Notes: generated by a model not told the origin, from the sequence alone. Positions 20,556 through 33,972 are shown, numbered from the stretch's first letter. The stretch is 64,000 bases of DNA from Synechococcaceae cyanobacterium SM2_3_2 (GCA_012031565.1 JAAUUM010000001.1:6981-70980), one strand, 5' to 3'. Numbers and translations: made by a program.

Positions 20556-20840
20556 ATGCAGTCATACCCCAGTGACTTAATCGAGACTTAACCGATACAG
20601 AATGGTGTCTTCTGGAACCCTTGATTCCCCTTCCCAAAGCGGGGGGACGTCCCAGCCCCACCAACATGCGCCACATCTGTAATGCCATCTTCATATGCAC
20701 TGGCCATCCCTGGCGTTACCTGCCCCATGACTTTCCCGCTTGGTCAACGGTCTATCATTACTTTCGTCTGTGGTGAGATGCGGGGGTGATTGAGCAGATG
20801 AATCACACCCTGCGAGAACTCCTCAAAGACCTGATGGATC
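20556..20840 (+). pseudogene. IS5-family transposase N-terminal fragment (frameshifted, truncated)
   Basis: MQSYPSDL then an 11-nt insertion, then TDTEWCLLEPLIPLPKAGGRPSPTNMRHICNAIFICTGHPWRYLPHDFPAWSTVYHYFRLW, a stop, then DAGVIEQMNHTLRELL. This is the DUF4096-type N-terminus of IS5-like transposases. No DDE half follows. Confidence 0.65.
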
Positions 20841-20897
20841 CCAAAGTTGGGGATTGGATGTGCAGCACTAAGCCGCTAGTGAAAGTTAGGCGATACA

Positions 20898-21059
20898 TCA
20901 TGACTGTTTCACCTGGGCTTTCTTGATGCGGATGATGGCTTGCAGGAGTTCCTTGCGGTGGAGGGAATCGGGATTGGGGATCCCTAGTTCTGCTGCGGTC
21001 AGTCGAAGTTGGGCGAGAGTGGGCCAAAAGATTCTTGCCATTGGTGGGATAGAACTCAT
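20898..21059 (-). CDS. Small phage-like protein with HeH/SAP (Rho-N-like) motif
   Basis: 53-codon ORF not in the track: MSSIPPMARIFWPTLAQLRLTAAELGIPNPDSLHRKELLQAIIRIKKAQVKQS. It lies 20 nt downstream of the Gp157-like gene. Confidence 0.4.
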   Translation of the reverse strand: MSSIPPMARIFWPTLAQLRLTAAELGIPNPDSLHRKELLQAIIRIKKAQVKQS

Positions 21060-21079
21060 CGCCCTGAGCGGGAGCCTGA

Positions 21080-21580
21080 TTATTTGATGTGGATGGAGGA
21101 TCCCCCTTCTCCTAGATGGGCAAACGGTAGCCCTTGGCCTTGCTCTAATGCCTCGCGGATGGCTTCTTTGTCGGGCTTGACCAGTAGCTCTGTTTGGGTG
21201 TAGTTCTCTGGCAGATCGGCTGTGCCCGCAGTGATGATCAGGGGAGCTTTGCCGCCGTTCTTGGCCAGGGTGACTTTGTACCGGTCGGTTTCAAGGGTTT
21301 TGATGCCGTGGCTCTCGAAGTAGGTATGGAGTTTACCTTTCAGCCAGTCGGATTGATTTTGGTCGATGTCAGCTCGGCTTCTCAATCGTTGAGCTTCGTC
21401 TCGTCGCCATTGGGCACGGGCATTGAGTTTGTTGATGATGTGACAGTAGGCTTCGATTTTGCTTTCCCGCAGATAGGTGAAGCTGTCTAGGAGTTTTTCA
21501 GTTCAGTCATACTCTTCAGCTTCTAGCAGTTCCAGGATTTGGACTTTGAGATGATCCAGTTGTTCGAAGGTGAGACTCAT
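21080..21580 (-). pseudogene. Siphovirus Gp157-family protein with in-frame TGA
   Basis: ATG at 21580 gives MSLTFEQLDHLKVQILELLEAEEYD, then TGA, then TEKLLDSFTYLRESKIEAYCHIINKLNARAQWRRDEAQRLRSRADID... The C-terminus TDRYKVTLAKNGGKAPL...VKPDKEAIREALEQGQGLPFAHLGEGGSSIHIK matches the Gp157 family as I remember it. Confidence 0.6.
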
Positions 21581-21666
21581 GTGGGATCCTCTGGTGGATT
21601 GGTTTGTTGTAGTGGCATGAGGTGCATAAGAAAAGGATCCCCTGGTGAGAGGATCCCTGAGTGGAT

Positions 21667-21846
21667 TTAGGCTGCGGTGGCTTCCCGTTCTTGTCTGAGG
21701 CGTGTTGCCTCTGCTTTGCTGGTCAGAAGGCGGACATTTTCGGCCTTGATGTAGGTTTTCCAGCGCAGTTGTCCTTCGTACTCGTAGGACTCGATGTGGA
21801 CGGATCCCTGGGAAGCGACTTGGTGGCTTATGCGGATAAGAGCTGA
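21667..21846 (-). pseudogene. 3-prime fragment of a phage-like gene (possibly OB-fold/SSB-like), cut by the IS
   Basis: Open frame SALIRISHQVASQGSVHIESYEYEGQLRWKTYIKAENVRLLTSKAEATRLRQEREATAA begins abruptly at the IS boundary. The SSB-like call is weak. Confidence 0.3.
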
Positions 21847-22768
21847 CTTATAAAAAGAAGATCAATGTGCCAGTCGTTTCACCATCAAACGAATCAAAGA
21901 GCCGTAGATTATCGCTTCGTTCACCTCTGCATATAGCTCGTAATCCTTACTGAGCCGACGAAATCGATTCAGCCATCCGAAGGTTCGCTCCACTATCCAT
22001 CGCTTAGGCAAGCGTTCAAACCCTTTTGAGCTTCGCTCAATCACTTCTACTCTTACCTGCTCACCACACACTTGCTGAACAACATGAGCAAAGGTCTGGC
22101 CCGAATAGCCTTGGTCGACCCAAATCACCTCTAACTTCTTCAATTTCTCCACCGCCTCATCTAAGACAATAACGGCTCCTAAGCGTTCTGGAGCATTGGC
22201 TTCACTGACTAACACCCCAATCACCAATCCTTGGGAATCTACGACGATATGGCGTTTACGGCCTTTAACTTTCTTGCCACCGTCAAAGCCGTAGACCTCC
22301 CCCTTTTTTCCGTGGTCTTGACGGATTGAGAATCGGCAATGGCAACGGTGGAGTATTCATCTCGTGCTTGTCACTGACGCACCTGGGTTCGGGGTTGGTC
22401 ATGCATCTGCTGCCAAATCCCCCGTCATTGCCATTTCTGAAAGTAGTGATACACAGTTGAGTAAGGCGGTAGGTCATGGGGCAACATCTCCCACTGACAA
22501 CCACTGCGTTGAACGTAGAAGATGCCGTTGAGGATCTCTGTGAAATCCACCTCAATAGGATGTCCAAACCCTTTGGGTTCAGGCAGCAAGGGCTTTAGCC
22601 TGTCCCACTCCTGGTCACTTAAGTCGCTGGGATAGGGTTTGCGGTGGGGATGGGCAATAGCAGGTAGACGGCTCATAGGTTGACTTTGAACTGACCAAGA
22701 CTCAGCGTAGAACCGATGAAGGAATAGTGTTACCCTCCTTTAGATTATCTTCATAAATCAGCTCTAAG
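21837..22768 (-). mobile_element. IS5-family (IS427/IS1031-like) insertion sequence, transposase disrupted
   Basis: Imperfect terminal inverted repeats, TAAGAGCTGACTTAT at 21837-21851 versus the reverse complement TTAGAGCTGATTTAT ending at 22768. The N-terminal ORF 22425-22676 has YPSDLSDQEWDRLKPLLP...CQWEMLPHDLPPYSTVYHYFQKWQ. The DDE half 21862-22227 has RWIVERTFGWLNRFRRLSKDYE. The middle part has two in-frame TGA codons and a frame change at gaaaaaaggggg. Confidence 0.7.
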
Positions 22769-23030: not shown

Positions 23031-24244
23031 CATGGGGCAATAGGCCGATGAGGATTGGCCATGATCAGCTTCATCATCTGCTTTTGGTGGTGCTCAGTGT
23101 ACCAGCGCCCATAAGACTGCTCGTGGATCTTGACACTGTGCCCCATCTGCTTGGCAGCAGATCCGACATCTAGCCCATAGGCTGAGGCCCTGCCAGCCCA
23201 AGCATGTCTGAGGTCATAGGGATGAAAGGGGATGCCATGCTCTTTGAACTTGCGGTTCAGGGGGGCACTGGGAACCTGGTTCCTTGTGGGCCTTGGTGTG
23301 GGGGCATCCTGCAAGCCCCATTGCTGGATCCACTCAGGATGCAAGGGCAGGATCCCAGTCCTAAATCCTGTCTTACCACCCAAAAGCCTCAACAGAGGGG
23401 GATCCGCTCTCAGGCTGTCCAGATCCACACTCCAGAACTCAGCGGTTCGCAAGCCATAGCAGGCCATGATTCCATAGACCGTGGCCCACTCGGGATCCCG
23501 CTCTTGCAGGATGTAGAACCATTGGGAGATCATCTCATCACTGGGCACATCTCGGGGGGCAGCTTTCTTATCTTTCCCTTTAGGCCGATAGACCGACAGA
23601 TTCACCTCCACCTCTGCGAACCGGGCCAGCAGCGCCAGGGCGTTGACAAACCGCTCTCGCACGCGGGATCCCGCCTTGGTCGTGATGGTCAGGGCAATCA
23701 TGGCCTCTGCACTGAGGGGATCCTGTTGGGGCAGGTCTCGATAAACCCTGAGATAGTCTCTACTCCATGTGCTGTGACTGGCTGGAGTGTCTGGGCGGGT
23801 GGATCGATAATGCTGCTCTAGCTTGGGGATCCACTCAGCGATGGTCTGTGGTGGTAGATCTGAGGGCTGAGGCTTGGCACGAATATGGTCATCCCAGCAA
23901 AAGGATTCATCGGCCACTTGAACCGAGATCTGCCTTGCCTTTTTCTCCACCGCTGGCAGATTGCCGATGTTGGCAGGGATCCCGGTGGATAGGGGCTGCT
24001 GCTTAGGGGGATGGTCTTTCCCTGGCTTGGCTGGCAGGATCCCACGTAGGTAGAAATTGCGGCGGCGGATCTCAATCTTCATCCTGATGTTGCCCGCCTT
24101 GAGACTACCGTTGGCTTGTCGTAATCGGGCATCAAGAGCAGCCGATGCAGCCTTGATGGGGATGACCTTAACAAGGGGGGGATCGGAGCGTTGGCTACTA
24201 TGTTGGCTATTTATTTGGCGTGATTTGGAGCTATTTGGAGACAT
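23030..24244 (-). CDS. Tyrosine-type site-specific recombinase/phage integrase
   Basis: 404 aa. C-terminal catalytic region with GLRTAEF (R), HPYDLRHAWAGRA (HxxR) and SVKIHEQSYGRWY (Y). It lies 73 nt from the tRNA-His 3-prime end. Confidence 0.85.
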   Translation of the reverse strand: MSPNSSKSRQINSQHSSQRSDPPLVKVIPIKAASAALDARLRQANGSLKAGNIRMKIEIRRRNFYLRGILPAKPGKDHPPKQQPLSTGIPANIGNLPAVEKKARQISVQVADESFCWDDHIRAKPQPSDLPPQTIAEWIPKLEQHYRSTRPDTPASHSTWSRDYLRVYRDLPQQDPLSAEAMIALTITTKAGSRVRERFVNALALLARFAEVEVNLSVYRPKGKDKKAAPRDVPSDEMISQWFYILQERDPEWATVYGIMACYGLRTAEFWSVDLDSLRADPPLLRLLGGKTGFRTGILPLHPEWIQQWGLQDAPTPRPTRNQVPSAPLNRKFKEHGIPFHPYDLRHAWAGRASAYGLDVGSAAKQMGHSVKIHEQSYGRWYTEHHQKQMMKLIMANPHRPIAP

Positions 24245-24317
24245 TTGGCGGGATCCAAAAGGGTGGATTGGCTCTGGAAGCCCGCTTGCTGTCAGGATTT
24301 AGCTTGATTTAACTGAG

Positions 24318-24391
24318 GGCGGACGATGGGGGTCGAACCCACGAATGGTGGAACCACAATCCACTGCCTTAACCACTTGGCTACGCCCGCC
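24318..24391 (-). tRNA. tRNA-His (anticodon GTG) with encoded G-1
   Basis: Reverse complement is G-GCGGGCG-TA-GCCAAGTGGTTAAGGCA-GTGGA-TTGTGGT-TCCAC-CATTC-GTGGGTTCGACCCCCAT-CGTCCGC-C. It folds as a cloverleaf with a GTG anticodon loop, a TTCGA T-loop, and an extra 5-prime G pairing with C73. CCA is not encoded. Confidence 0.9.
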
Positions 24392-24597: not shown

Positions 24598-27420
24598 ATG
24601 TATATTCCAGCATCAACTTATCGGATCCAATTCAACTCAGCCTTTCCCTTTGCATCAGCCCAAAGTATAGTCTCCTATTTGGCAGAGTTAGGTATTTCAG
24701 ATGTCTACGCATCCCCGATTTTTCAGTCTCGGGCCGGCAGCACACATGGTTACGATGTGGTGGATCCCGGCAGCATCAATCAAGAGCTGGGGGGAGAAGA
24801 AGGATTACGGCAGCTAGTGGATTCCTTACAAAAAAAATTAATGGGCTGGATCCAAGATATTGTTCCGAATCATATGGCTTACGATGGCCAAAACAAGATG
24901 TTGATGGATGTGCTAGAGAGTGGCCCAGACTCAGACTACTATGATTCATTTGATGTTAATTGGAATCATTCTTATCTCAACATTCAGGGTCGAATTTTAG
25001 CTCCTTTTCTGGGAGATTTTTATAATGTTTGTCTTGAACAAGGTCAAATTCAGCTCAAGTATGATGAATCTGGCCTCAGCATCAACTATTATAATCTCAA
25101 ATTACCTCTCAATATCAATACTTATTACCCTGTTTTTACCCATAACCTGAAAAAATTCAAGCAAAAGTTAAAGAAAGGGGATCCCGATTATATTCGCTTT
25201 TTAGCGGCACTCTATACCCTGCGCTCGATCCCCACCAAGGTTGATTTGCTGGAGCGCACTGACCAGATTGCTTTTGTCAAAGAGTTACTTTGGGAGCTGT
25301 ATAGTCACAGCACCGATATCCATCAGTTTGTGGATGAGACTATTGCCCAATTCAACGGGATCCCTGAGGATCCAGGGAGTTTTGATCTGTTAGACCGGCT
25401 GTTAACAGAACAGTATTTTAACCTGACTTTCTGGAAGGTGGGAGCTGAAGAAATTAACTATCGACGCTTCTTTACGATTAATGAGTTGATTTCTTTGCGA
25501 ATTGAAGATAGAGAGGTTTTTAAGAGAACTCACGAATTGATTTTTAGATTGATTGATCAAGGAATTTTTAGGGGGTTGAGAATCGATCATATAGATGGTC
25601 TCTATGATCCCGGTGAATATCTTGATCGACTCAGAGAAAAAGCCAAAGATGCTTATATCGTTGTGGAGAAGATCTTAGAAGCTGATGAGTCCTTGCGGCG
25701 TAACTGGCCTATCCAAGGGGCGACTGGCTATGAATCTCTGATTAAGATCAATGGCTTATTCTGTGATGGACGCCAAGAAGAAGAATTTACTTCCGTCTAC
25801 ACTAGCTTCTCGCGGCTGAGAGATGATTTTGAGAATGTGGCGGAAGCTAAAAAACGAGTCATCCTTGATCGCAACTTGGCTGGAGATGTAGATAATCTCT
25901 CTTATAATTTGAAGCAGATTGCCAGCCGCCATCGCTATGCCAATGACTTTACCCTCTATAGTCTGCGAAAAGCCCTGATTGAAGTGTTGGTGAGATTCCC
26001 TGTCTATCGAGTCTATGTCACGGGAAATGTTTTGAATGAACAGGAACAAGGATATGTCAATGTGGCCATTAGCCAATCTCTTGAAGCTATGCCCGACTTG
26101 GCCAATGAATTATACTTTATCCAAAAGTTATTGTTGTTAAATTATGATGAATCACTCAATGAAGACGAGCGCCAAGAATGGATTCATTTTGCTAGGCGGA
26201 CACAACAACTTTTTGGGCCACTGATGGCTAAAGGCGTTGAAGACACAGCTTTTTATGTCTATAATCGCCTAATGTCTCTCAACGAAGTGGGCGGGGATCC
26301 CGGTTGTTTTGGTACCTCGGTAGAGAGCTTTCATATCTTTAATCAGGATCGCGCTCTGCACTGGCCCCACACCCTGAATACCCTCGCCACTCATGATACC
26401 AAAAGAGGGGAGGATGCTCGGGCTCGCATTAGTATTTTGTCTGAAATACCTGAGGATTGGAAAGATTGTCTAGAGGAATGGCATGAGGCCAATCTCCATT
26501 TCAAAAAGAAAGTCCGACGGTGGGAATATCCTGCTCGCAATGATGAGTATTTGCTTTATCAAACTTTGATCGGCTCTATGCCATTCTTTAGTGGAGAAGA
26601 GCCTGACTATTATCATCGGGATTATCTCCAATTTATTCAGCGGGTGAAGGAATATCTGATCAAAGCCGTGAGGGAAGCAAAAGTCCACACAGCTTGGCTC
26701 AATAACAATATCGAGTACGAAGAGGCAGCCACTCAATTTGTAGAGCAAATTTTGTTGCCGAGCGATGACAATGACTTTTTGCCTTCTTTTGTGCCTTTCC
26801 AGAAACAGATTCAGCACCTCGGCATCTTTAATTCCCTTTCTCAAACCCTGTTGAAGTTGATGGTGCCAGGGATCCCCGATATTTACCAAGGCTCAGAATT
26901 TTGGGACTTGAGCATGGTGGATCCTGATAATCGTCGTCCGGTGGACTATGAGCAACGCAAGGTCTGTCTGCAAGTAATTCGAGCCGGATTAGAGCGGGAT
27001 CCCCAACCCCTGATCCAGCAACTGCTGGCCACCCGTCAGGATGGCCGCATCAAGCAGTTTGTGATTTATCTGGGCTTGCAAACCCGACGGCAGTACCCAG
27101 AGCTGTTTCAGTCTGGCGATTATCAACCTCTGCAAGTGGAAGGATCCCGGCAGGAGCATGTGGTGGCTTTCACCCGTACCTTCCAGGGACAAACGATCTT
27201 GGTGGCGGTGCCCCGACTGATCGCCACCTTGGTGGATGTTGGCAAGGATCCACTCGGGGCTGAGGTCTGGGGCGATACCCGACTGCGGTTGCCCCAAAAG
27301 ACCAAACGGACTTGGCGCAATCTCTTGACCCAAGCCACTCTGCCGAGCCAGGGATCCCTGTTGATGGCCGATCTGTTGGATCTGATGCCCTTGGGGCTAT
27401 TGATCTGTGACCACGACTGA
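24598..27420 (+). CDS. treY: Malto-oligosyltrehalose synthase
   Basis: 940 aa. N-terminus STYRIQFNSAFPFASAQSIVSYLAELGISDVYASPIFQSRAGSTHGYDVVDP, then LRIDHIDGL, and ATHDTKRGEDARARI, all typical of TreY. Confidence 0.9.
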   Translation: MYIPASTYRIQFNSAFPFASAQSIVSYLAELGISDVYASPIFQSRAGSTHGYDVVDPGSINQELGGEEGLRQLVDSLQKKLMGWIQDIVPNHMAYDGQNKMLMDVLESGPDSDYYDSFDVNWNHSYLNIQGRILAPFLGDFYNVCLEQGQIQLKYDESGLSINYYNLKLPLNINTYYPVFTHNLKKFKQKLKKGDPDYIRFLAALYTLRSIPTKVDLLERTDQIAFVKELLWELYSHSTDIHQFVDETIAQFNGIPEDPGSFDLLDRLLTEQYFNLTFWKVGAEEINYRRFFTINELISLRIEDREVFKRTHELIFRLIDQGIFRGLRIDHIDGLYDPGEYLDRLREKAKDAYIVVEKILEADESLRRNWPIQGATGYESLIKINGLFCDGRQEEEFTSVYTSFSRLRDDFENVAEAKKRVILDRNLAGDVDNLSYNLKQIASRHRYANDFTLYSLRKALIEVLVRFPVYRVYVTGNVLNEQEQGYVNVAISQSLEAMPDLANELYFIQKLLLLNYDESLNEDERQEWIHFARRTQQLFGPLMAKGVEDTAFYVYNRLMSLNEVGGDPGCFGTSVESFHIFNQDRALHWPHTLNTLATHDTKRGEDARARISILSEIPEDWKDCLEEWHEANLHFKKKVRRWEYPARNDEYLLYQTLIGSMPFFSGEEPDYYHRDYLQFIQRVKEYLIKAVREAKVHTAWLNNNIEYEEAATQFVEQILLPSDDNDFLPSFVPFQKQIQHLGIFNSLSQTLLKLMVPGIPDIYQGSEFWDLSMVDPDNRRPVDYEQRKVCLQVIRAGLERDPQPLIQQLLATRQDGRIKQFVIYLGLQTRRQYPELFQSGDYQPLQVEGSRQEHVVAFTRTFQGQTILVAVPRLIATLVDVGKDPLGAEVWGDTRLRLPQKTKRTWRNLLTQATLPSQGSLLMADLLDLMPLGLLICDHD

Positions 27421-27558: not shown

Positions 27559-28081
27559 TCATGTCTTGCTTTCCTTGAAAACCCTAAAATCATGTCCTCT
27601 CCCTTTGCCAAAACTTGTGCCAATAATCTGCCCACTTCCCTGCTCAACTGTCACCTGTGCTTTTAGGGTGTGACACTTCTGGTAGTAATCCCGCTGTTTC
27701 TTTAGGCTGCTCAATCTCAACTTCAGTAACGTCGATAACAATCACCTCATATCCCGTTCCCCTCAGCCTCTTTTTGCCCGCTAGATGAAACTCTGGACAT
27801 CGAGCCAAAGGCTTTTCTACTTTGTGGACAATCCGGCAAACGGTTGATTCATGAACCCCTGCAACTTGGCCAATATGAAAGTAGGTACGGTACTCTCACC
27901 AATAACTCAGGCAGATCAGCAGCTGCTCAGCAACACTCAGCTTGTTTTGTCCCCCTCTGCGTCGTTGCCGGTGCAAGTGAGGGGTCAAGTAGGCAACCAT
28001 GTGCTCAAACGTTTCTCGCCGCACGCTTGTTAGACGCTTGAAGGCTGCTGGGGATAGTGATTGGACTTTGTCGTCGGTCAT
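27559..28081 (-). pseudogene. IS5-like (DDE_Tnp_4/Harbinger-type) transposase remnant, multiple stops, 3-prime truncated
   Basis: N-terminal HTH ORF 27896-28081 (LTSVRRETFEHMVAYL...GGQNKLSVAEQLLICLSYW). It continues out of frame (EYRTYFHIGQVAGVHESTVCRIV), then ORF 27559-27741 (KKQRDYYQKCHTLKAQVTVEQGSGQIIGTSFGKGRGHDFRVFKESK). The last third of the enzyme is absent. Confidence 0.65.
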
Positions 28082-28161: not shown

Positions 28162-28392
28162 CAAGCCGATCAGTGCAGTATCCCCAACCCTGGAAGTGAC
28201 CCGAGAATCGTCAGCAGTTGGGTACAACGATATCGCCAAGACGGATTGTAGATGCCGCACGATATACCCAGGTCGGGACGACGGATAGAAATTGACGGGC
28301 TGCACCATCCTGTGGTGAACTACCCAATGGTTAAAGCTGATTTTCCATTGTGGAGACTTGCGAGTTTAGGATGCAAAATCCTGAAAGGATAG
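28162..28392 (+). pseudogene. IS630-family transposase N-terminal (HTH) fragment with in-frame TAG
   Basis: The frame reads ...PRIVSSWVQRYRQDGL, TAG, MPHDIPRSGRRIEIDGLHHPVVNYPMVKADFPLWRLASLGCKILKG. The WVxRYRxxGL...PRSGR pattern is typical of IS630/Tc1 HTH regions. No DDE part follows. Confidence 0.5.
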
Positions 28393-28406
28393 TTCAAAAC
28401 TGAAGT

Positions 28407-30998
28407 ATGGATACTCGTACAAAATCACAACAGAAACCATTTATACTGAATTTAACAACGATGGTGCCCCTAATGTCTGTGCAACTCGTACCGCAGTGTA
28501 AAAATCTCAAAGATCAGGTTGAGGCGATTTTAAGCTTGTGGCAGCAGGATCCCGTCCTCCAAGGGAAGTTAGACCCGACACGGATCCAATCCTCGCTCAG
28601 CAAAGCCATTTCCCCCACCTTCGAGATTGTCTTTGCTGGGGCTTTCAGCGCAGGTAAATCCATGCTGATCAACGCCTTGCTGGAAAGGGAGCTACTCTAC
28701 AGTGCTGAGGGGCACGCCACCGGAACTGAATGCTATATTGCTTATGCAGAAGCTGATCAGGAGCGAGTCGTACTGACCTTCTTGAGCGAACAGCAAGTGC
28801 GTGAACAGGTGATCGCGTTCTGTAGCCGACTCAATCTTCTTTCTCCCAACAGTTTGGACGGCAACACTTTAAAATCTCTGCATGAACAAGCTGACGCCAT
28901 CATTCAGCAAGAAGGGGGAAAGAGCAAGTCAGAACGGGCTAAGCAAGCGGATGCTCTAAGTTTGCTGATTGATGGATTTCAGCAGAATCAAGCCAGCATC
29001 CATCCTACCGAAAATAAAGTATTTTCGATGGAACAATTTAATTTTAGCAATCTCAAGGAGGCAGCTGGTTTCGCCCGTCGGGGAGCCAATAGTGCGGTGC
29101 TCTGGAAAGTGGAATACTACTGCCATCACCCCTTGCTCAAGGATGGAAATGTTATTGTTGACACCCCTGGAATTGATGCTCCTGTCAAAGCAGATGCCGA
29201 TCGCACTTACAACAAAATTGCCGATCCTGATACGTCCGCAGTGATATGTGTATTAAAGTCCGCTGCCACTGGCGAACTGACCCAAGAAGAAACCGATTTA
29301 ATCGAGCGCATTCAGGCCAATGCAAGCATTCGAGATCGAGTTTTCTATGTATTTAATCGTATTGACGAAACATGGTATAATACTCAACTCAGGCAAAGGT
29401 TAGATAACATCATTAATCAGCAGTTTAAGCAACTAAGAATCTTCAAAACGAGTGGATTGTTGGGATTCTATGGATCCCAGATCAAGGCAGCTAAAGCAGA
29501 GGAAAGATTTGGACTTAATACTCTATTTGCTGAGAGCATCAAGGGTCTGGGTGGGATAGAAGAAGTTCCTCAATTTGTAAGTGAGTTCAACAAGTATTGT
29601 GGATCAGGTAAATTAGTCGGTAGCACATTTCGTACATCAATTTATACCTATGAGACACCCCTAGAAAACTATGTTCGGATCTTGACTGAGTGTGGCCAGC
29701 CTTTGATTCAACATATGATCAAAGATAGCGGGATCGAAGATTTCCGTTCAGGTATTACCCGCTATCTGACCGAAGAGAAACGTCCTCAACTCTTTGCTGC
29801 GCTAGCAGATGATTTGCAACCACTATGTATTGAACTGCGTAAGGCTTACCTAGCTCTCTATGGACATCTTGACAGCCAACCGCGAGAAGTAGAAGGGATG
29901 ATCGCTCATGAATTACTCCTAATCAATCAACAGTTATCTCAGATTGGCAGAGATTTCAGCGAACATATGGATAATATGGTTAACGATGTGATTGATGGCA
30001 CAGACAAAGAGTTTGAAGCAGATTTTAGGAAATTACAGTCTAAGATGGTACGCCGCTTAGATGAGTTATTAGACACCTTCTCTGTCGATGATGCTTACAG
30101 TCGAGCCATTCGTAATCACCCTCGAAATTCTACTGCTCCTCTGCTAGCAGTTTTGGTGGAAGCATTTTACTATCTATCAAATGAGCTGGAAGATATTTTA
30201 GTTGGCTCTGCTGAGATGATAGCTGAGGGATTTTTTCATCGCCTCAATAGTGAGGTCAGAAATTCTGATTATTATCGCCAACTCTTTCGATTGTTGGGAT
30301 CCGATAATGATCTAGAGAAAAAACTACTGCTTGTAGAAGAGGTTACCCGTAGCTCATTGATAAATGGTGCGCGCAAGGAATGTGATCGATATGTGCGAGA
30401 AAGTCCCCGGTTCTATGATGAAGGCACGTTTTCAATCTATCAGTTTCGAGAGGTATTGAAGCAAACTTCTCAATCTTATGATATTTTGGCAATTAAGGAC
30501 GCGGAGCCAGGGATCCGACAATTGCTCAAGCTCGATTTTGAACCTAAGATCGGTCAGACTGTTCGATCTCATTTCCGCCAAGAAACTAATAATACCCTCA
30601 AAACTCAACTTTTGCCAATCGGGAAACAGGTGTCAGATGAGATTTTGCAGAAATATCCTCAAGCTAAGCATTTCATGGAGCAAACTCTCAAAAAAGAGGC
30701 CGCAGAAAAAATAGAACTTAATCAGCATCATCTCAATAGTCTGAAAATCAATATACGCAACTATAATCAGGCCGTTAGTGGGATAAACCTTTGCTTACAG
30801 ACTTTGCATCTAGATCGTGAGATATTACCCTTAATTGACTACTCCGAGTTTCAAGGATTGAATCTTGATCTCAACAATGAAGATACTTCAGACAAATCGG
30901 CTATTCAGGACGCTCCAGAAGAACCAGAAATTAGAGATGTGATTGTTGATTCAGATATGGCTTCCGAGTCAGATAGTATTCTCGATGATTTAAGGTAA
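28407..30998 (+). CDS. Dynamin family GTPase (bacterial dynamin-like protein)
   Basis: 863 aa. G1 FEIVFAGAFSAGKSMLINALL, G3 VIVDTPGIDAP, G4-like YVFNRID, followed by about 500 aa of helical stalk-like sequence and an acidic tail ending SESDSILDDLR. Alternative start MVPLMSV at 28461. Confidence 0.85.
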   Translation: MDTRTKSQQKPFILNLTTMVPLMSVQLVPQCKNLKDQVEAILSLWQQDPVLQGKLDPTRIQSSLSKAISPTFEIVFAGAFSAGKSMLINALLERELLYSAEGHATGTECYIAYAEADQERVVLTFLSEQQVREQVIAFCSRLNLLSPNSLDGNTLKSLHEQADAIIQQEGGKSKSERAKQADALSLLIDGFQQNQASIHPTENKVFSMEQFNFSNLKEAAGFARRGANSAVLWKVEYYCHHPLLKDGNVIVDTPGIDAPVKADADRTYNKIADPDTSAVICVLKSAATGELTQEETDLIERIQANASIRDRVFYVFNRIDETWYNTQLRQRLDNIINQQFKQLRIFKTSGLLGFYGSQIKAAKAEERFGLNTLFAESIKGLGGIEEVPQFVSEFNKYCGSGKLVGSTFRTSIYTYETPLENYVRILTECGQPLIQHMIKDSGIEDFRSGITRYLTEEKRPQLFAALADDLQPLCIELRKAYLALYGHLDSQPREVEGMIAHELLLINQQLSQIGRDFSEHMDNMVNDVIDGTDKEFEADFRKLQSKMVRRLDELLDTFSVDDAYSRAIRNHPRNSTAPLLAVLVEAFYYLSNELEDILVGSAEMIAEGFFHRLNSEVRNSDYYRQLFRLLGSDNDLEKKLLLVEEVTRSSLINGARKECDRYVRESPRFYDEGTFSIYQFREVLKQTSQSYDILAIKDAEPGIRQLLKLDFEPKIGQTVRSHFRQETNNTLKTQLLPIGKQVSDEILQKYPQAKHFMEQTLKKEAAEKIELNQHHLNSLKINIRNYNQAVSGINLCLQTLHLDREILPLIDYSEFQGLNLDLNNEDTSDKSAIQDAPEEPEIRDVIVDSDMASESDSILDDLR

Positions 30999-31046
30999 GA
31001 ATTCATTTGATTTGTATACCCATCTTTTTTCAAGGTTAGTTAGATT

Positions 31047-31436
31047 ATGCCATTAGAACAGATTGATTTGAGTCAATACCCGGAAGGGATCCTTTCTGTC
31101 GGAGAAAAGAACTTTAAGATTTCCACCTTGCTCAAGGCAGCTCAGAATGATTTGGCAAAGAAAGAAGAGCTAAACCGTTTGTTTATCTCTGCTCTCCGAA
31201 CAACTGGGATCCTTGCACCTGATGACTTGATTAATATTGCTAGTAGCCTCCTTGCTCCAAAATCAGAAGAGAAGTCCTTGGAGGAAACTAAGTGGTTTGG
31301 AGATGGTTTGATCTGCCAGATACTGATTCCAAACCAGAAAGAGTGGGAGGTAGGTAAACTAAAACTTAGAATAACAGTTGATTTTGAAACTGATGCACCT
31401 AAAAGTGAATCTCCACTTAATGACTTTCGCAGTTAA
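31047..31436 (+). CDS. KGK-domain-like small protein, paralog 1
   Basis: 129 aa. The C-terminal core KWFGDGLICQILIPNQKEWEVGKLKLRITVDFETD aligns with the next ORF and with my memory of the cyanobacterial KGK domain (W..GK..I...EF.PD). Tail SESPLNDFRS. Confidence 0.55.
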   Translation: MPLEQIDLSQYPEGILSVGEKNFKISTLLKAAQNDLAKKEELNRLFISALRTTGILAPDDLINIASSLLAPKSEEKSLEETKWFGDGLICQILIPNQKEWEVGKLKLRITVDFETDAPKSESPLNDFRS

Positions 31437-31469
31437 TATCTTTGCTATAAATTAGAGAATGGAGACAGA

Positions 31470-31877
31470 GTGATGGAAGAGATATATTGCGATTTAGTTG
31501 AATTCAATGATGGCGTTATTGCTTTTGATGAGGGAACCTGTATGGTAGATAGATTTATTAATTTATCTGAGAAGTCTATATTACAATACCCTTCTCTTGG
31601 TTCTGGCCTTACCAATCATTTGAGAGGTCATGCTCAACTCAAGATCAGTCCACCTCAAAACAACCATGCAAATTGGTTTAATAATCAAGGGATTCCTTGT
31701 TCCATACTTTCGCCAGAAACAAACGGATGGCAAAAAGGTAGAGTCAAAATCAATGTACAGGTGACGGTCGAGTTTTATCCCGATGATCCTGAATCGTTTC
31801 TAACAAGTTGTAGTCCAAGTGGAGAATCCCCAGAATCTCTTTTGGATGATATTCGGAGTCTGGAAGATCAAGCATGA
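31470..31877 (+). CDS. KGK-domain-like small protein, paralog 2
   Basis: 135 aa (ATG at 31473). Core NWFNNQGIPCSILSPETNGWQKGRVKINVQVTVEFYPDDPE, tail GESPESLLDDIRSLEDQA. GGAGA lies upstream of the start. Confidence 0.55.
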   Translation: MMEEIYCDLVEFNDGVIAFDEGTCMVDRFINLSEKSILQYPSLGSGLTNHLRGHAQLKISPPQNNHANWFNNQGIPCSILSPETNGWQKGRVKINVQVTVEFYPDDPESFLTSCSPSGESPESLLDDIRSLEDQA

Positions 31878-32029
31878 GAGAGAAAAAGACCCCCCAACGG
31901 ATCCCTATCCCAACCTCTGTCCGTGGCTACATATTCACCAGAGACAAGCATCAATGTCAGGGGTGTGGAAAAAAGGGATCCCAAGCCCAACTCCAGTTTG
32001 AATTAGAGATTGAATCCGGTGAGATCTAG
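31874..32029 (+). pseudogene. HNH endonuclease N-terminal remnant
   Basis: 51-codon ORF whose ATG overlaps the KGK2 stop (ATGA): [51 protein letters not shown]. The IP..VR..(V/I)..RD...C..CG pattern is the start of an HNH domain. The catalytic D/H-H...N part is missing. Confidence 0.5.
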
Positions 32030-33972
32030 AGATTGTCGATCTCCACCGGCTCAATGGCATCCACCAGCTCAAAACCAAATACCTGACCATAAAAATAGAG
32101 TTCTGCTTCTAGGGTTCGCTTGATGGTGGCCGATTGACGGAAGCCATGCTGCTCCCCCTCAAAAGCTAGGTAGGCTACCGGCAAGCCTTTGGCCTTGAGC
32201 GCCTTTACCATCATCTCTGCCTGGTTGGGGGGAACGATTTTGTCCTCCAAGCCCTGAAAAAAGATCACCGGACAGGTCAGCCCTTCCGGATGAAAAATCG
32301 GGGAGCGGGCCTGATAAATCGCCTCTTGCTCAGGATAGGATCCCACCAATCCATCCAAGTAGCGGGACTCAAATTTGTGGGTATCTCGCACCAAAGCCGC
32401 TAAATCGCTGACACCGTAATAGCTAGCCCCCGCCTTGAATACATCCCGAAAGGTCAGAGCCGCCAAGGTGGTATACCCCCCAGCACTGCCGCCATCAATA
32501 CAAAGTCGCTCAGGATCCGCCTTACCCTGCTCTGTCAAATAGCGGGCCCCATTCACACAATCATCCACATCCACAATGCCCCAGTTGCCCTGTAGCCGCT
32601 GCCGATACTCCCGCCCATAGCCCGTGCTACCGCCATAATTGACATCCAGCACCGCAACACCACGACTGGTCCAATACTGGATCCCGAGGTTGAAAGAGGC
32701 GCTAGTGGAGGCTGTGGGGCCACCATGACTTTTGACCAAGAGGGGAGGTGTTTCCCCCTCTGGGGCTTGAAAATCAGCATTGGTGGGGGCATAAAAATAG
32801 CCATGTGCGGTCAGGCCATTTTCGGTGGGAAACTCAATCGCCTCCGGGATGGACAGATAGCCCGGATCAATCTCCAGCTCATTGGCCTTACGCAATACCG
32901 CCCAAGTCTCAGTCGCCAGATCCATCAACACGATGGCAGCAGGCTGGGTCGGGGATCCCCCTACAAACAAAGCCTTGCCGTCATCTACCCGCAAACTGCC
33001 GAGGCTGGTAAAGGGAATCGCAATTGGCCGCAGGGATCCTGTTTTCACCTCAAAGCGAGCCAGCTGAGTGCCTTCTGCCTCTGAATAGACACAGAGGATC
33101 TCGTCTGCACTGACAAAGCCATAGGTGGACATGCCAAACACCCATTGGGGCTGACCAAACTCTGCTGCCCGGGGACACACCGCTTCGATGGTAGTGCCTG
33201 TCCAGCGATGGAGATTCCACCAATTGCTCCGATCCGAGACGAAATACAGGATCCCGTCGGGACTCCATTGGGGCTGAAAGATCGACTCCTGGGATCCCCC
33301 GGCCACTGGCAGGGGTTCCCCCAAGCCTCCATCCGGCTGTATCTCCGCCACCCACAGGGTTGTGCCATCCCACGGCATCTGGGGGTGATCCCAGGTCAGC
33401 CAAGCCAGCCGGGAGCCATCGGGGCTGAGACAAGGGGAGGCAAAAAAGTCGTGTCCAGAGGCCAAGAGGGTGCCCTCATCAAGATGGCTGGGATCCACCT
33501 CTAGAGACACCAAAGCATTGACAGGTTCATGCCCCCCCGCTCGATGATCTTCTCGAATGGCAATCAACCGCTGCCGCCAGGGATCCCCGATCATGTCGGC
33601 ATAGCGGAGGGCTGACTCGGACTCCGGTGTGAGGGGTTGCGGATCTGTCTCACCAGCACCAAGGCGATAGAGCCGTTGGTCGGCAAAGTTGACGAAATAG
33701 ACCACCCCTGCGATGACTCGAAAGGATCCACCTCCATACTCATGCACACGAGTACGGACATTGAATGGTGCAGGGGTCAAGGCTTCACCTGGGATGCCTG
33801 CCACCAAAACATTGCGGCCTTTCTCTGTGGGACGACCTTCTGTCCAGTAGACTTGCCCTTGAGCTAAGCCCAATTCCCCCAGTCGAATCGAGTCAGCCAC
33901 GATCAGATCTGCGGTGATGGGGGACTTCCAGCTGCCATAGGGTTTGACAATGGCGGATTGAGGTGCAGTCAT
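32026..33972 (-). CDS. S9 family serine peptidase (prolyl oligopeptidase/acylaminoacyl-peptidase type)
   Basis: 648 aa. N-terminal beta-propeller-like half, and a C-terminal alpha/beta hydrolase with nucleophile motif [15 protein letters not shown] and a later GLEDKIVP / EGEQHGF. Confidence 0.85.

Follow-up and report, generated by a model that had tools for sequence, protein, structure and literature searches.

A probable KGK-clade dynamin-like protein operon with a truncated HNH nuclease gene in Synechococcaceae cyanobacterium SM2_3_2

Does the compact group of four genes at positions 28407-32029 of a 64,000-nucleotide stretch from Synechococcaceae cyanobacterium SM2_3_2 (GCA_012031565.1 JAAUUM010000001.1:6981-70980; hereafter, the window) represent an undescribed system, or a copy of one that is already known? 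The genes encode a dynamin-like protein (DLP), two small proteins with a KGK domain (KGK1 and KGK2), and the beginning of an HNH nuclease. An initial annotation, made from the sequence alone, had recognized four co-directional open reading frames (ORFs), which the ORF calls bear out (Table 1). It had also held that no described system pairs a DLP with KGK proteins, and had proposed a mobile conflict or defence locus. The pairing is, however, in the literature. Jilly et al. (2018; PMC5827413) used the sequences and neighbouring genes of 121 cyanobacterial DLPs to divide them into clades and defined a KGK clade by the presence of a downstream KGK gene, while Gewehr et al. (2023; PMC10104851) solved the structure of SynDLP (Slr0869) of Synechocystis sp. 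PCC 6803 (PDB: 7ZW6) and placed it in that clade; the window DLP is an orthologue of SynDLP. By every feature testable in its sequence, the window locus belongs to this known type. It is highly probable that it is a copy of a KGK-clade DLP operon of the SynDLP type in which the HNH gene has been halved and the KGK proteins would serve as accessory partners.

The assignment begins with the DLP. In a phmmer search of PDB sequences, the window DLP matched Slr0869/SynDLP (7zw6_A; E value 4.9e-299), with residues 26-814 aligned on chain positions 3-794. The Pfam domain Dynamin_N was recovered at 57.6 bits (E value 2e-15; cut-off 27), and the protein carries the G1-G4 motifs together with the extended P-loop GxxxxGKS/TxL/INALL/I (GAFSAGKSMLINALL, DTPG, and NRID in the window); GAFSAGKS, DTPG, and NRID had all been listed in the initial annotation and are present as described. 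The DLP probably starts at M24 (28476), giving a protein of 840 aa, because SynDLP begins MSKIAPQC where the window reads MSVQLVPQC, and because the orthologues are about 840 aa in length. In a ten-sequence DLP alignment (A1), mean column identity is 75% and two cysteines, C8 and C773, are invariant. To judge from the alignment, the window DLP keeps both of the cysteines that make the disulfide of the bundle signalling element (BSE) in SynDLP, a pair that is conserved clade-wide in KGK-clade DLPs (PMC10104851). Taken together, the primary structure identifies the window DLP as an orthologue of SynDLP/Slr0869 with intact GTPase motifs. GTPase activity, nucleotide-independent oligomerisation, and binding to anionic thylakoid lipids have been demonstrated solely for SynDLP itself, which in vitro binds these negatively charged lipids and fuses liposomes.

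The DLP is widespread in the phylum. A database search gave 1437 homologues. The 120 best among those listed share 59-92% identity across no less than 86% of the length, and nearly all of them bear cyanobacterial names. The closest matches outside the clade of the window are 67% identical, and no nearer low-GC donor was found in this search. A pattern scan with one genome per species gave at least 481 matching stretches that were confirmed as relatives. The initial annotation had named conservation of the DLP orthologue across all relatives as an observation that would speak against its own proposal, and what was found comes close to this, with proteins about 60-70% identical in at least 481 species. 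A neighbour-joining tree of 81 DLPs follows taxonomy, in that Nostocales, Anabaena/Dolichospermum, Okeania/Dapis, and Coleofasciculus each cluster, and the Thermostichales-like group, which includes the window DLP, forms a deep sister branch. Cyanobacterial-type DLP loci also occur in assemblies named as an Actinomycetota metagenome-assembled genome (L062: DLP, KGK, and HNH) and as Candidatus Gracilibacteria (P0042: DLP only); these non-cyanobacterial labels probably reflect binning contamination and not horizontal transfer.

The arrangement of the neighbouring genes provides the second line of evidence. In the window, the KGK genes start 49 nt and 472 nt past the DLP stop on the same strand; both small proteins exceed the gathering cut-off of the Pfam KGK family (PF08872; 25.6 bits), as the initial annotation had anticipated in calling them KGK-like. 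In order to place this layout among others, KGK and HNH hidden Markov models (HMMs) were built iteratively and all six-frame ORFs were searched in 81 DLP-centred loci with 8-kb flanks. Word-indexed homologue searches yielded 5 proteins for KGK2 and 16 for HNH, too few for statistics, so that our own HMMs and an exhaustive representative search were used. All 105 KGK and all 47 HNH ORFs lie downstream of the DLP gene on the same strand, and a search of some 528 kb upstream, and of the opposite strand, in these 81 loci yielded neither family. Where the sequence extends at least 3 kb downstream (67 loci), KGK is present in 45, HNH in 43, both in 37, and neither in 16. Loci carry between 0 and 5 KGK copies each, and roughly one in six has KGK genes but no HNH within 8 kb. 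When neighbouring ORFs were clustered all against all, DLP, KGK, and HNH were the sole families conserved set-wide; the next commonest neighbours are housekeeping genes that are syntenic within Nostoc, i.e., those for an LD-carboxypeptidase, an FAD-dependent protein, a polysaccharide deacetylase, a glutathione S-transferase, and an aspartoacylase. Close relatives have intact operons: L005, the closest, whose DLP is 92% identical to that of the window, and L004 are both organized as DLP-KGK-KGK-HNH, and L001 as DLP-KGKx3-HNH. The neighbourhood comparison suggested in the initial annotation thus gave a positive answer, both for the strong association of the three families across cyanobacteria and for the existence of intact four-gene versions (L005 and L004).

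The same association is seen from the other genes. In metagenome loci centred on KGK, a sample drawn with a tighter alignment subset (A3) that leans to DLP-linked KGK, DLP lies upstream in 42 of 52 informative loci and HNH downstream in 45 of 59. Look-ups centred on HNH placed the proteins P0132 and P0133, each of about 80 aa, in DLP-KGK-HNH loci. The full operon form that is common across the phylum consists of a DLP gene, one to five KGK genes, and a gene for an HNH protein of about 81 aa. In one metagenome contig (L091:204-3045) the KGK and DLP genes are convergent, the sole such case.

How much of this is new? In the supplementary table of PMC5827413, which covers 19 KGK-clade DLPs, the next downstream gene is given as "HNH nuclease" three times and as "Restriction endonuclease" once. 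The texts of PMC5827413 and PMC10104851 mention neither HNH nor a nuclease, and a literature search found no paper combining dynamin, HNH, cyanobacteria, and operon. The HNH association is visible in the published data and is not interpreted there. With the pairing of DLP and KGK already published, what is new is the phylum-wide dedicated HNH, the tail motif common to KGK and DLP proteins, and the unmatched KGK fold, none of which is specific to the window.

The fourth gene had been described as an eroded HNH gene whose ATG overlaps the KGK2 stop, and this description stands: the overlap is ATGA, and the predicted 51-aa product aligns residue by residue with intact HNH proteins of 80-86 aa up to the sequence ...AQLQ (residue 41), diverging one residue before the catalytic DH. 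Pfam gives no match to the 51-aa stub, although its homology with the intact proteins up to residue 41 indicates that it is a genuine truncated HNH. Past 31996 the window ORF adds ten residues and then stops. At the nucleotide level, similarity with L005 (blastn) sets in 63 bp 5' of the long DLP ORF and ends at codon 41 of HNH; it is confined to 28344-31996, and the flanks on either side are unrelated. At the rearrangement junction 31996/31997 the HNH gene lost roughly half of its length and with it every catalytic residue. The beta-beta-alpha-metal core, with DH...N...N and the zinc cysteines, is absent from the stub and present in orthologues (P0126: HNH_5 at 70.5 bits), and the window nuclease is inactive because both its catalytic half and its second CxxC pair are missing. 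With this loss the operon in the window has become one of DLP+KGK. The stop of the read-through overlaps by 4 bp the stop of a convergent gene for an S9 (prolyl-oligopeptidase family) peptidase (32026-33972, opposite strand), which places the junction about 30 bp from the 3' end of the peptidase gene. An independent decay of HNH is found in Dolichospermum planctonicum NIES-80 (L073:12159-12380), where a 73-aa ORF is frameshifted past the first CxxC.

Elsewhere the nuclease is strictly conserved. Each of the 45 full-length copies retains DH...ND..N...LC..CN and both CxxC pairs, and HNH closes the array in 86 of 91 cases. In 47 of 81 cases the HNH start either overlaps the stop of KGK or is at most 30 nt away; 20 of these have the 4-bp overlap found in the window. 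Small HNH genes are common mobile passengers. The HNH could thus be an unrelated selfish hitch-hiker, comparable to a homing endonuclease, that landed after KGK and left DLP+KGK as the functional unit; its absence from about one third of the loci, and its decay in the window and in L073, would fit such an origin. We regard this as very improbable, since the operon HNH proteins form one subfamily of about 81 aa that is 70% identical phylum-wide, occupies a fixed position and strand, is often coupled to KGK, and was met again in DLP loci when the search set out from HNH. The nearest different HNH, the more distant 125-aa protein P0138, adjoins uvrB, a different context. Stand-alone HNH proteins such as Geobacter Gmet_0936 (PDB: 4H9D) and the HNH domains of IscB and Cas9 resemble the intact orthologues in the HNH/HNH_5 core and the two CxxC pairs. 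Unlike these, the operon HNH is a minimal protein of about 81 aa, dedicated to DLP loci, with conserved N-terminal TPRIPIP and C-terminal D.RFRR.F segments of its own, and the window copy is without the catalytic half.

The KGK proteins differ from their partners in rate of change: within the same locus set, mean pairwise identity is 71% for DLP, 70% for HNH, and 33-35% for KGK. Of the 105 KGK proteins, 87 have a conserved C-terminal motif, ESPLDD[LI]R, which follows an acidic proline-rich linker, and the motif is retained in 10 of 11 KGK proteins from loci without HNH. The same short motif ends the window DLP (...SILDDLR), as it does the DLPs of seven of eight Thermostichales-like relatives, the eighth (L008) having ILDDLT. 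In Okeania/Dapis the DLPs have SPLDDLRR close to the C-terminus, so that the motif is found on DLP tails in two lineages. Many Nostocales DLPs (L016, L025, L029, L034, L036, L052, and L058) end instead in ...SDGLLDG[IM]AQV, without ILDDLR; this tail may be a lineage-specific alternative docking peptide.

Structure prediction, which the initial annotation had recommended, gave a confident AlphaFold2 model of KGK2 from an 89-sequence alignment (mean predicted local distance difference test score, pLDDT, 86.7; core above 90), superseding a first model from 7 sequences (pLDDT 61) with which Foldseek returned noise only. In this model a hairpin is followed by two helices, a second hairpin, and a further helix, after which a linker of low confidence leads to a detached C-terminal helix that consists of the motif. 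Foldseek comparison of the model with PDB and BFVD found no neighbour (best E value above 1, TM-score at most 0.21), a KGK profile search of PDB sequences was empty, and a search for domain fusions that might hint at function found tandem KGK proteins only. Orphan KGK genes occur away from DLP (L137:5947-6845, L147:5989-6312, L163:5920-6234, L157, and L159) and are repeatedly flanked by a pstB-like ABC ATPase gene on one side and a tilS-like gene on the other, or occupy other conserved neighbourhoods; some KGK proteins therefore work independently of DLP.

From these features a mechanism can be proposed. The DLP would be an oligomerising, membrane-active GTPase, as SynDLP is in vitro, and the fast-evolving KGK proteins would be its accessory adaptors or regulators, each built of a folded alpha/beta core, an acidic flexible linker, and the ESPLDD[LI]R helix acting as a docking peptide. 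The docking site is most likely on the DLP, because the motif also ends the DLP in the window lineage and because KGK proteins keep it in loci without HNH. The DLP tail and the KGK tails would then compete for one site. The authors of the SynDLP work expect "accessory proteins" to curb oligomerisation and futile GTP hydrolysis in vivo, and such competition would fit partners that restrain oligomerisation. The HNH would probably be a KGK-bound nuclease recruited to the DLP assembly, a KGK-HNH complex being suggested by the start/stop coupling of HNH to the last KGK gene. We infer both the docking and the KGK-HNH complex from gene order and conserved motifs. In the cell, the assembly could serve to repair membranes under stress, to defend against phages, or to handle DNA at membranes.

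Several observations weigh against reading the locus as an operon with KGK accessory partners. The 16 loci with neither partner, mostly from Nostoc, hold a DLP without KGK or HNH nearby, which indicates that neither is obligatory. In L008, L011, L032, and L040 HNH follows DLP directly with no KGK, and KGK is therefore not an indispensable bridge. The KGK-centred sample, having been chosen for its similarity to a DLP-linked KGK, inflates the association, and orphan KGK genes exist. The argument for the docking site is indirect, and genomes without HNH at the locus could have a copy elsewhere. Lastly, simple vertical inheritance does not account for the steady low GC content of the module in high-GC hosts. 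The low GC is not specific to an insertion in the window, since the module is low in GC in every high-GC relative examined (module 0.38-0.51; flanks of L004 and L006-L008 mostly 0.55-0.64, with L001 and L005 showing a less uniform difference).

The operon could also encode a so far unrecognised, phylum-wide three-part machine in which a eukaryote-like dynamin scaffold controls, or is controlled by, a dedicated minimal nuclease through fast-evolving KGK adaptors that would have a new fold and a common ESPLDDLR docking helix, the nuclease being integral and serving defence or DNA handling. We put this forward tentatively and consider it possible, though doubtful. Another reading is a DNA-associated dynamin machine after the concept of CrfC, with the DLP on the nucleoid or on membrane DNA, HNH as the enzymatic partner, and KGK as adaptors. 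For this speak the strictly conserved and, as far as the residues tell, catalytically intact nuclease as the terminal gene of the operon, the position of the operon after dnaE and a UvrD-type helicase gene in Thermostichus-like genomes, and the tag "replication fork clamp-binding protein CrfC" given by JGI to many members, which is an automatic label only. In a Synechocystis lexA mutant, slr0868-slr0871 are de-repressed together, all 6-16-fold up, a joint rise that is consistent with a co-regulated unit. As against this, Synechocystis LexA is not thought to control an SOS response, according to the same paper; the dnaE/uvrD neighbourhood is limited to one lineage; and SynDLP acts on thylakoid lipids and liposomes, with DNA binding unreported. 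On this balance a DNA machine seems quite unlikely, more so than defence, and the SynDLP-type operon with accessory KGK proteins is retained as the preferred reading.

Defence was the proposal of the initial annotation. The DLP would sense or respond to infection at the membrane, KGK would provide specificity or regulation, and HNH would degrade DNA in an anti-phage response of the abortive-infection type, disarmed in the window. DynA and LeoABC are precedents for dynamin-like proteins in defence. An NTPase with small variable proteins and a nuclease is a typical defence architecture; KGK varies in copy number and evolves fast (about 34% identity); and parts are often lost, as with the eroded HNH of the window and L073 and the absence of both partners from many Nostoc loci. 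The surroundings of the module are unrelated among the window, L005, L004, and L001, its GC content is below that of its hosts, and an insertion sequence (IS) remnant adjoins it in the window. SynDLP is non-essential, and its authors raise phage-related membrane repair as a possibility. In opposition to this, DLP and HNH are about 70% identical phylum-wide and the DLP tree mirrors taxonomy, unlike genes in an arms race or genes spread horizontally. Housekeeping genes predominate among the 114 genes closest to the operon in 34 diverse loci, where defence or mobile matches are only scattered, and searches of viral contigs in IMG/VR recovered no relatives of DLP or KGK, so that a viral origin was dropped as well.

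Comparison with known systems leads to the same result. PADLOC, one of the checks that had been suggested, gave no system-level match: LeoA (34.8 bits; best stretch, residues 66-93) and LeoBC (26.8 bits) matched at the P-loop region, HNH matched as a generic domain, and KGK gave nothing; across the comparison, LeoA matches to DLP reach 35-51 bits and cover the P-loop and G domain only. The NCBIfam model DLP_LeoA_gen scores 12.1 bits on the window DLP against a cut-off of 325, and the DynA model NF052648 scores 31.7 bits against one of 1600, with a single G domain matched. LeoA/LeoBC ("Dynamins"/Eleos) and DynA resemble the module in having a large dynamin-family GTPase with partners and a possible stress or phage context. 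In contrast, the module has no LeoB/C-type partners and no two-headed fusion, its partners being KGK and HNH. The Nostoc punctiforme BDLP and the tandem A/B DLPs are likewise bacterial dynamin-like GTPases, from the same phylum and the same survey (PMC5827413), but belong to another clade, have paired DLP genes, and lack KGK or HNH partners. No second DLP gene is present among the ORFs called in the module, and the BDLP structures were absent from the PDB sequence search with the window DLP (E value at most 0.001), which returned Slr0869 and mitofusin chains only. To the SynDLP/KGK clade, the likeness comprises full-length orthology, the extended P-loop, the Cys pair, and KGK genes directly downstream, the feature that defines the clade; the differences are that the window has two KGK genes and an HNH remnant, and that its DLP has an extra C-terminal tail ending in ILDDLR, like the KGK tail motif. 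The idea of a mobile conflict or defence locus thus gives way before an orthologue conserved in at least 481 species, the taxonomy-like tree, the housekeeping synteny in Nostoc, and the lack of viral copies. The defence reading is without specific support, the case for a mobile defence locus is weak, and we consider defence unlikely.

Table 1. Features of the dynamin-like protein module and its surroundings in the window
Feature	Position	Strand	Basis or remark
Dynamin-family ORF, 863 aa	28407-30998	+	ORF calling; Dynamin_N
KGK1, 129 aa	31047-31436	+	PF08872, E = 6.8e-16, 59.2 bits; orthologues in L004 and L005
KGK2, 135 aa	31470-31877	+	PF08872, E = 1.2e-20, 74.6 bits; AlphaFold2 pLDDT 86.7
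HNH stub ORF, 51 aa	31874-32029	+	Aligns with intact HNH proteins of relatives
Nucleotide-homology block with L005, 84% identity	28344-31996	+	blastn of window against L005; junction alignment
G1/P-loop with cyanobacterial extension, GAFSAGKSMLINALL	28638-28682	+	Motif extension defined in PMC5827413
G1 core GAFSAGKS	28638-28661	+	
G3 motif DTPG	29160-29171	+	
G4-like motif NRID	29355-29366	+	
DLP Cys pair	PQC 28491-28499; NLCLQ 30786-30800	+	Match SynDLP BSE-disulfide cysteines
DLP extreme C-terminal tail SILDDLR	30975-30995	+	Short motif common with KGK protein ends
KGK1 tail motif SPLNDFR	31410-31430	+	
KGK2 tail motif SLLDDIR	31836-31856	+	
HNH homologous N-terminal 41 codons, first CxxC pair kept	31874-31996	+	Own HNH HMM, E = 7e-18
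Non-homologous read-through past rearrangement junction	31997-32029	+	Second CxxC and catalytic DH...N...N absent
Frameshifted IS transposase remnant, directly upstream of module	27559-28081	-	DDE_Tnp_1 E = 2.6e-4, HTH_Tnp_4 E = 0.011; concatenated fragments, both below gathering scores
tRNA-His	24317-24390	-	4 kb from module
Integrase-like ORF, 404 aa	23030-24244		Adjoins tRNA-His 3' end; Phage_integrase E = 6.6e-4, sub-threshold; no NCBIfam match

It remains to consider the arguments from composition and surroundings on which the proposed mobility was based. The module is AT-rich as claimed (GC content 0.42, against 0.53 for the whole window). The host palindrome GGGATCCC, which the module was said to lack, has 82 copies in the window, about 1.3 per kb (e.g., at 23976, 24444, 26294, and 31975), and HIP1 (GCGATCGC), the canonical palindrome of cyanobacteria, has 3 copies in the whole window, a pattern rich in the former and poor in the latter that we take to fit a genome like those of Thermostichus and the Yellowstone Synechococcus. 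The module holds one copy of GGGATCCC where 4.8 would be expected at the background rate; about 1.6 are estimated after GC correction, and as a sign of foreignness the shortage is mostly explained by the lower GC content of the module. Depletion of HIP1 was rejected as such a sign, the motif being near-absent window-wide. The treY gene (malto-oligosyltrehalose synthase; TIGR02401, E value 1e-280), located between tRNA-His and the module at 24598-27420, has a GC content of 0.45 and a normal palindrome density, with 6 copies. Low GC alone therefore marks no foreign DNA, and the low-GC stretch is not one island. A further compositional anomaly, at 6-7 kb of the window, corresponds to a Gly/Leu/Trp-rich membrane protein. 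An Rfam scan gave no match in the module, and a promoter/terminator scan found no plus-strand terminator-like site in it from 28344 onward.

The module had also been placed in an island associated with a tRNA and an integrase, and described as bordered by IS remnants. The integrase-like ORF lies on the 3' side of tRNA-His and faces away from the module, so that any island it defined would run leftwards, off the module; the window at 18-34 kb yielded no att-like repeat. The island was rejected on this geometry and the absence of att repeats, and the normal palindrome density of treY also argues against it. Of the IS borders, the upstream remnant is found, weakly supported (Table 1), and upstream only. 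In favour of mobility, a second IS and the integrase-like gene lie within 8 kb of the module. An IS-like element at 20721-22483 is delimited by 45-bp inverted repeats (20721-20765 and 22439-22483; 80% complementary) and holds a fragment of a DDE_Tnp_1_2 transposase ORF (21862-22227, minus strand).

For the window, the result is a correction, in that the "undescribed system" is a published KGK-clade DLP locus of which this copy is partly decayed. For the family it reaches further. SynDLP is the best-characterised cyanobacterial dynamin, and the KGK proteins, with their putative docking motif, and the 81-aa HNH are now concrete candidates for its accessory proteins. If the link with the nuclease is functional, work on this DLP family should move from assays of membranes alone to nucleic-acid- or phage-related phenotypes, and if the three-part machine proved true, the role of SynDLP in vivo would include nucleic-acid cleavage and not membrane remodelling alone.

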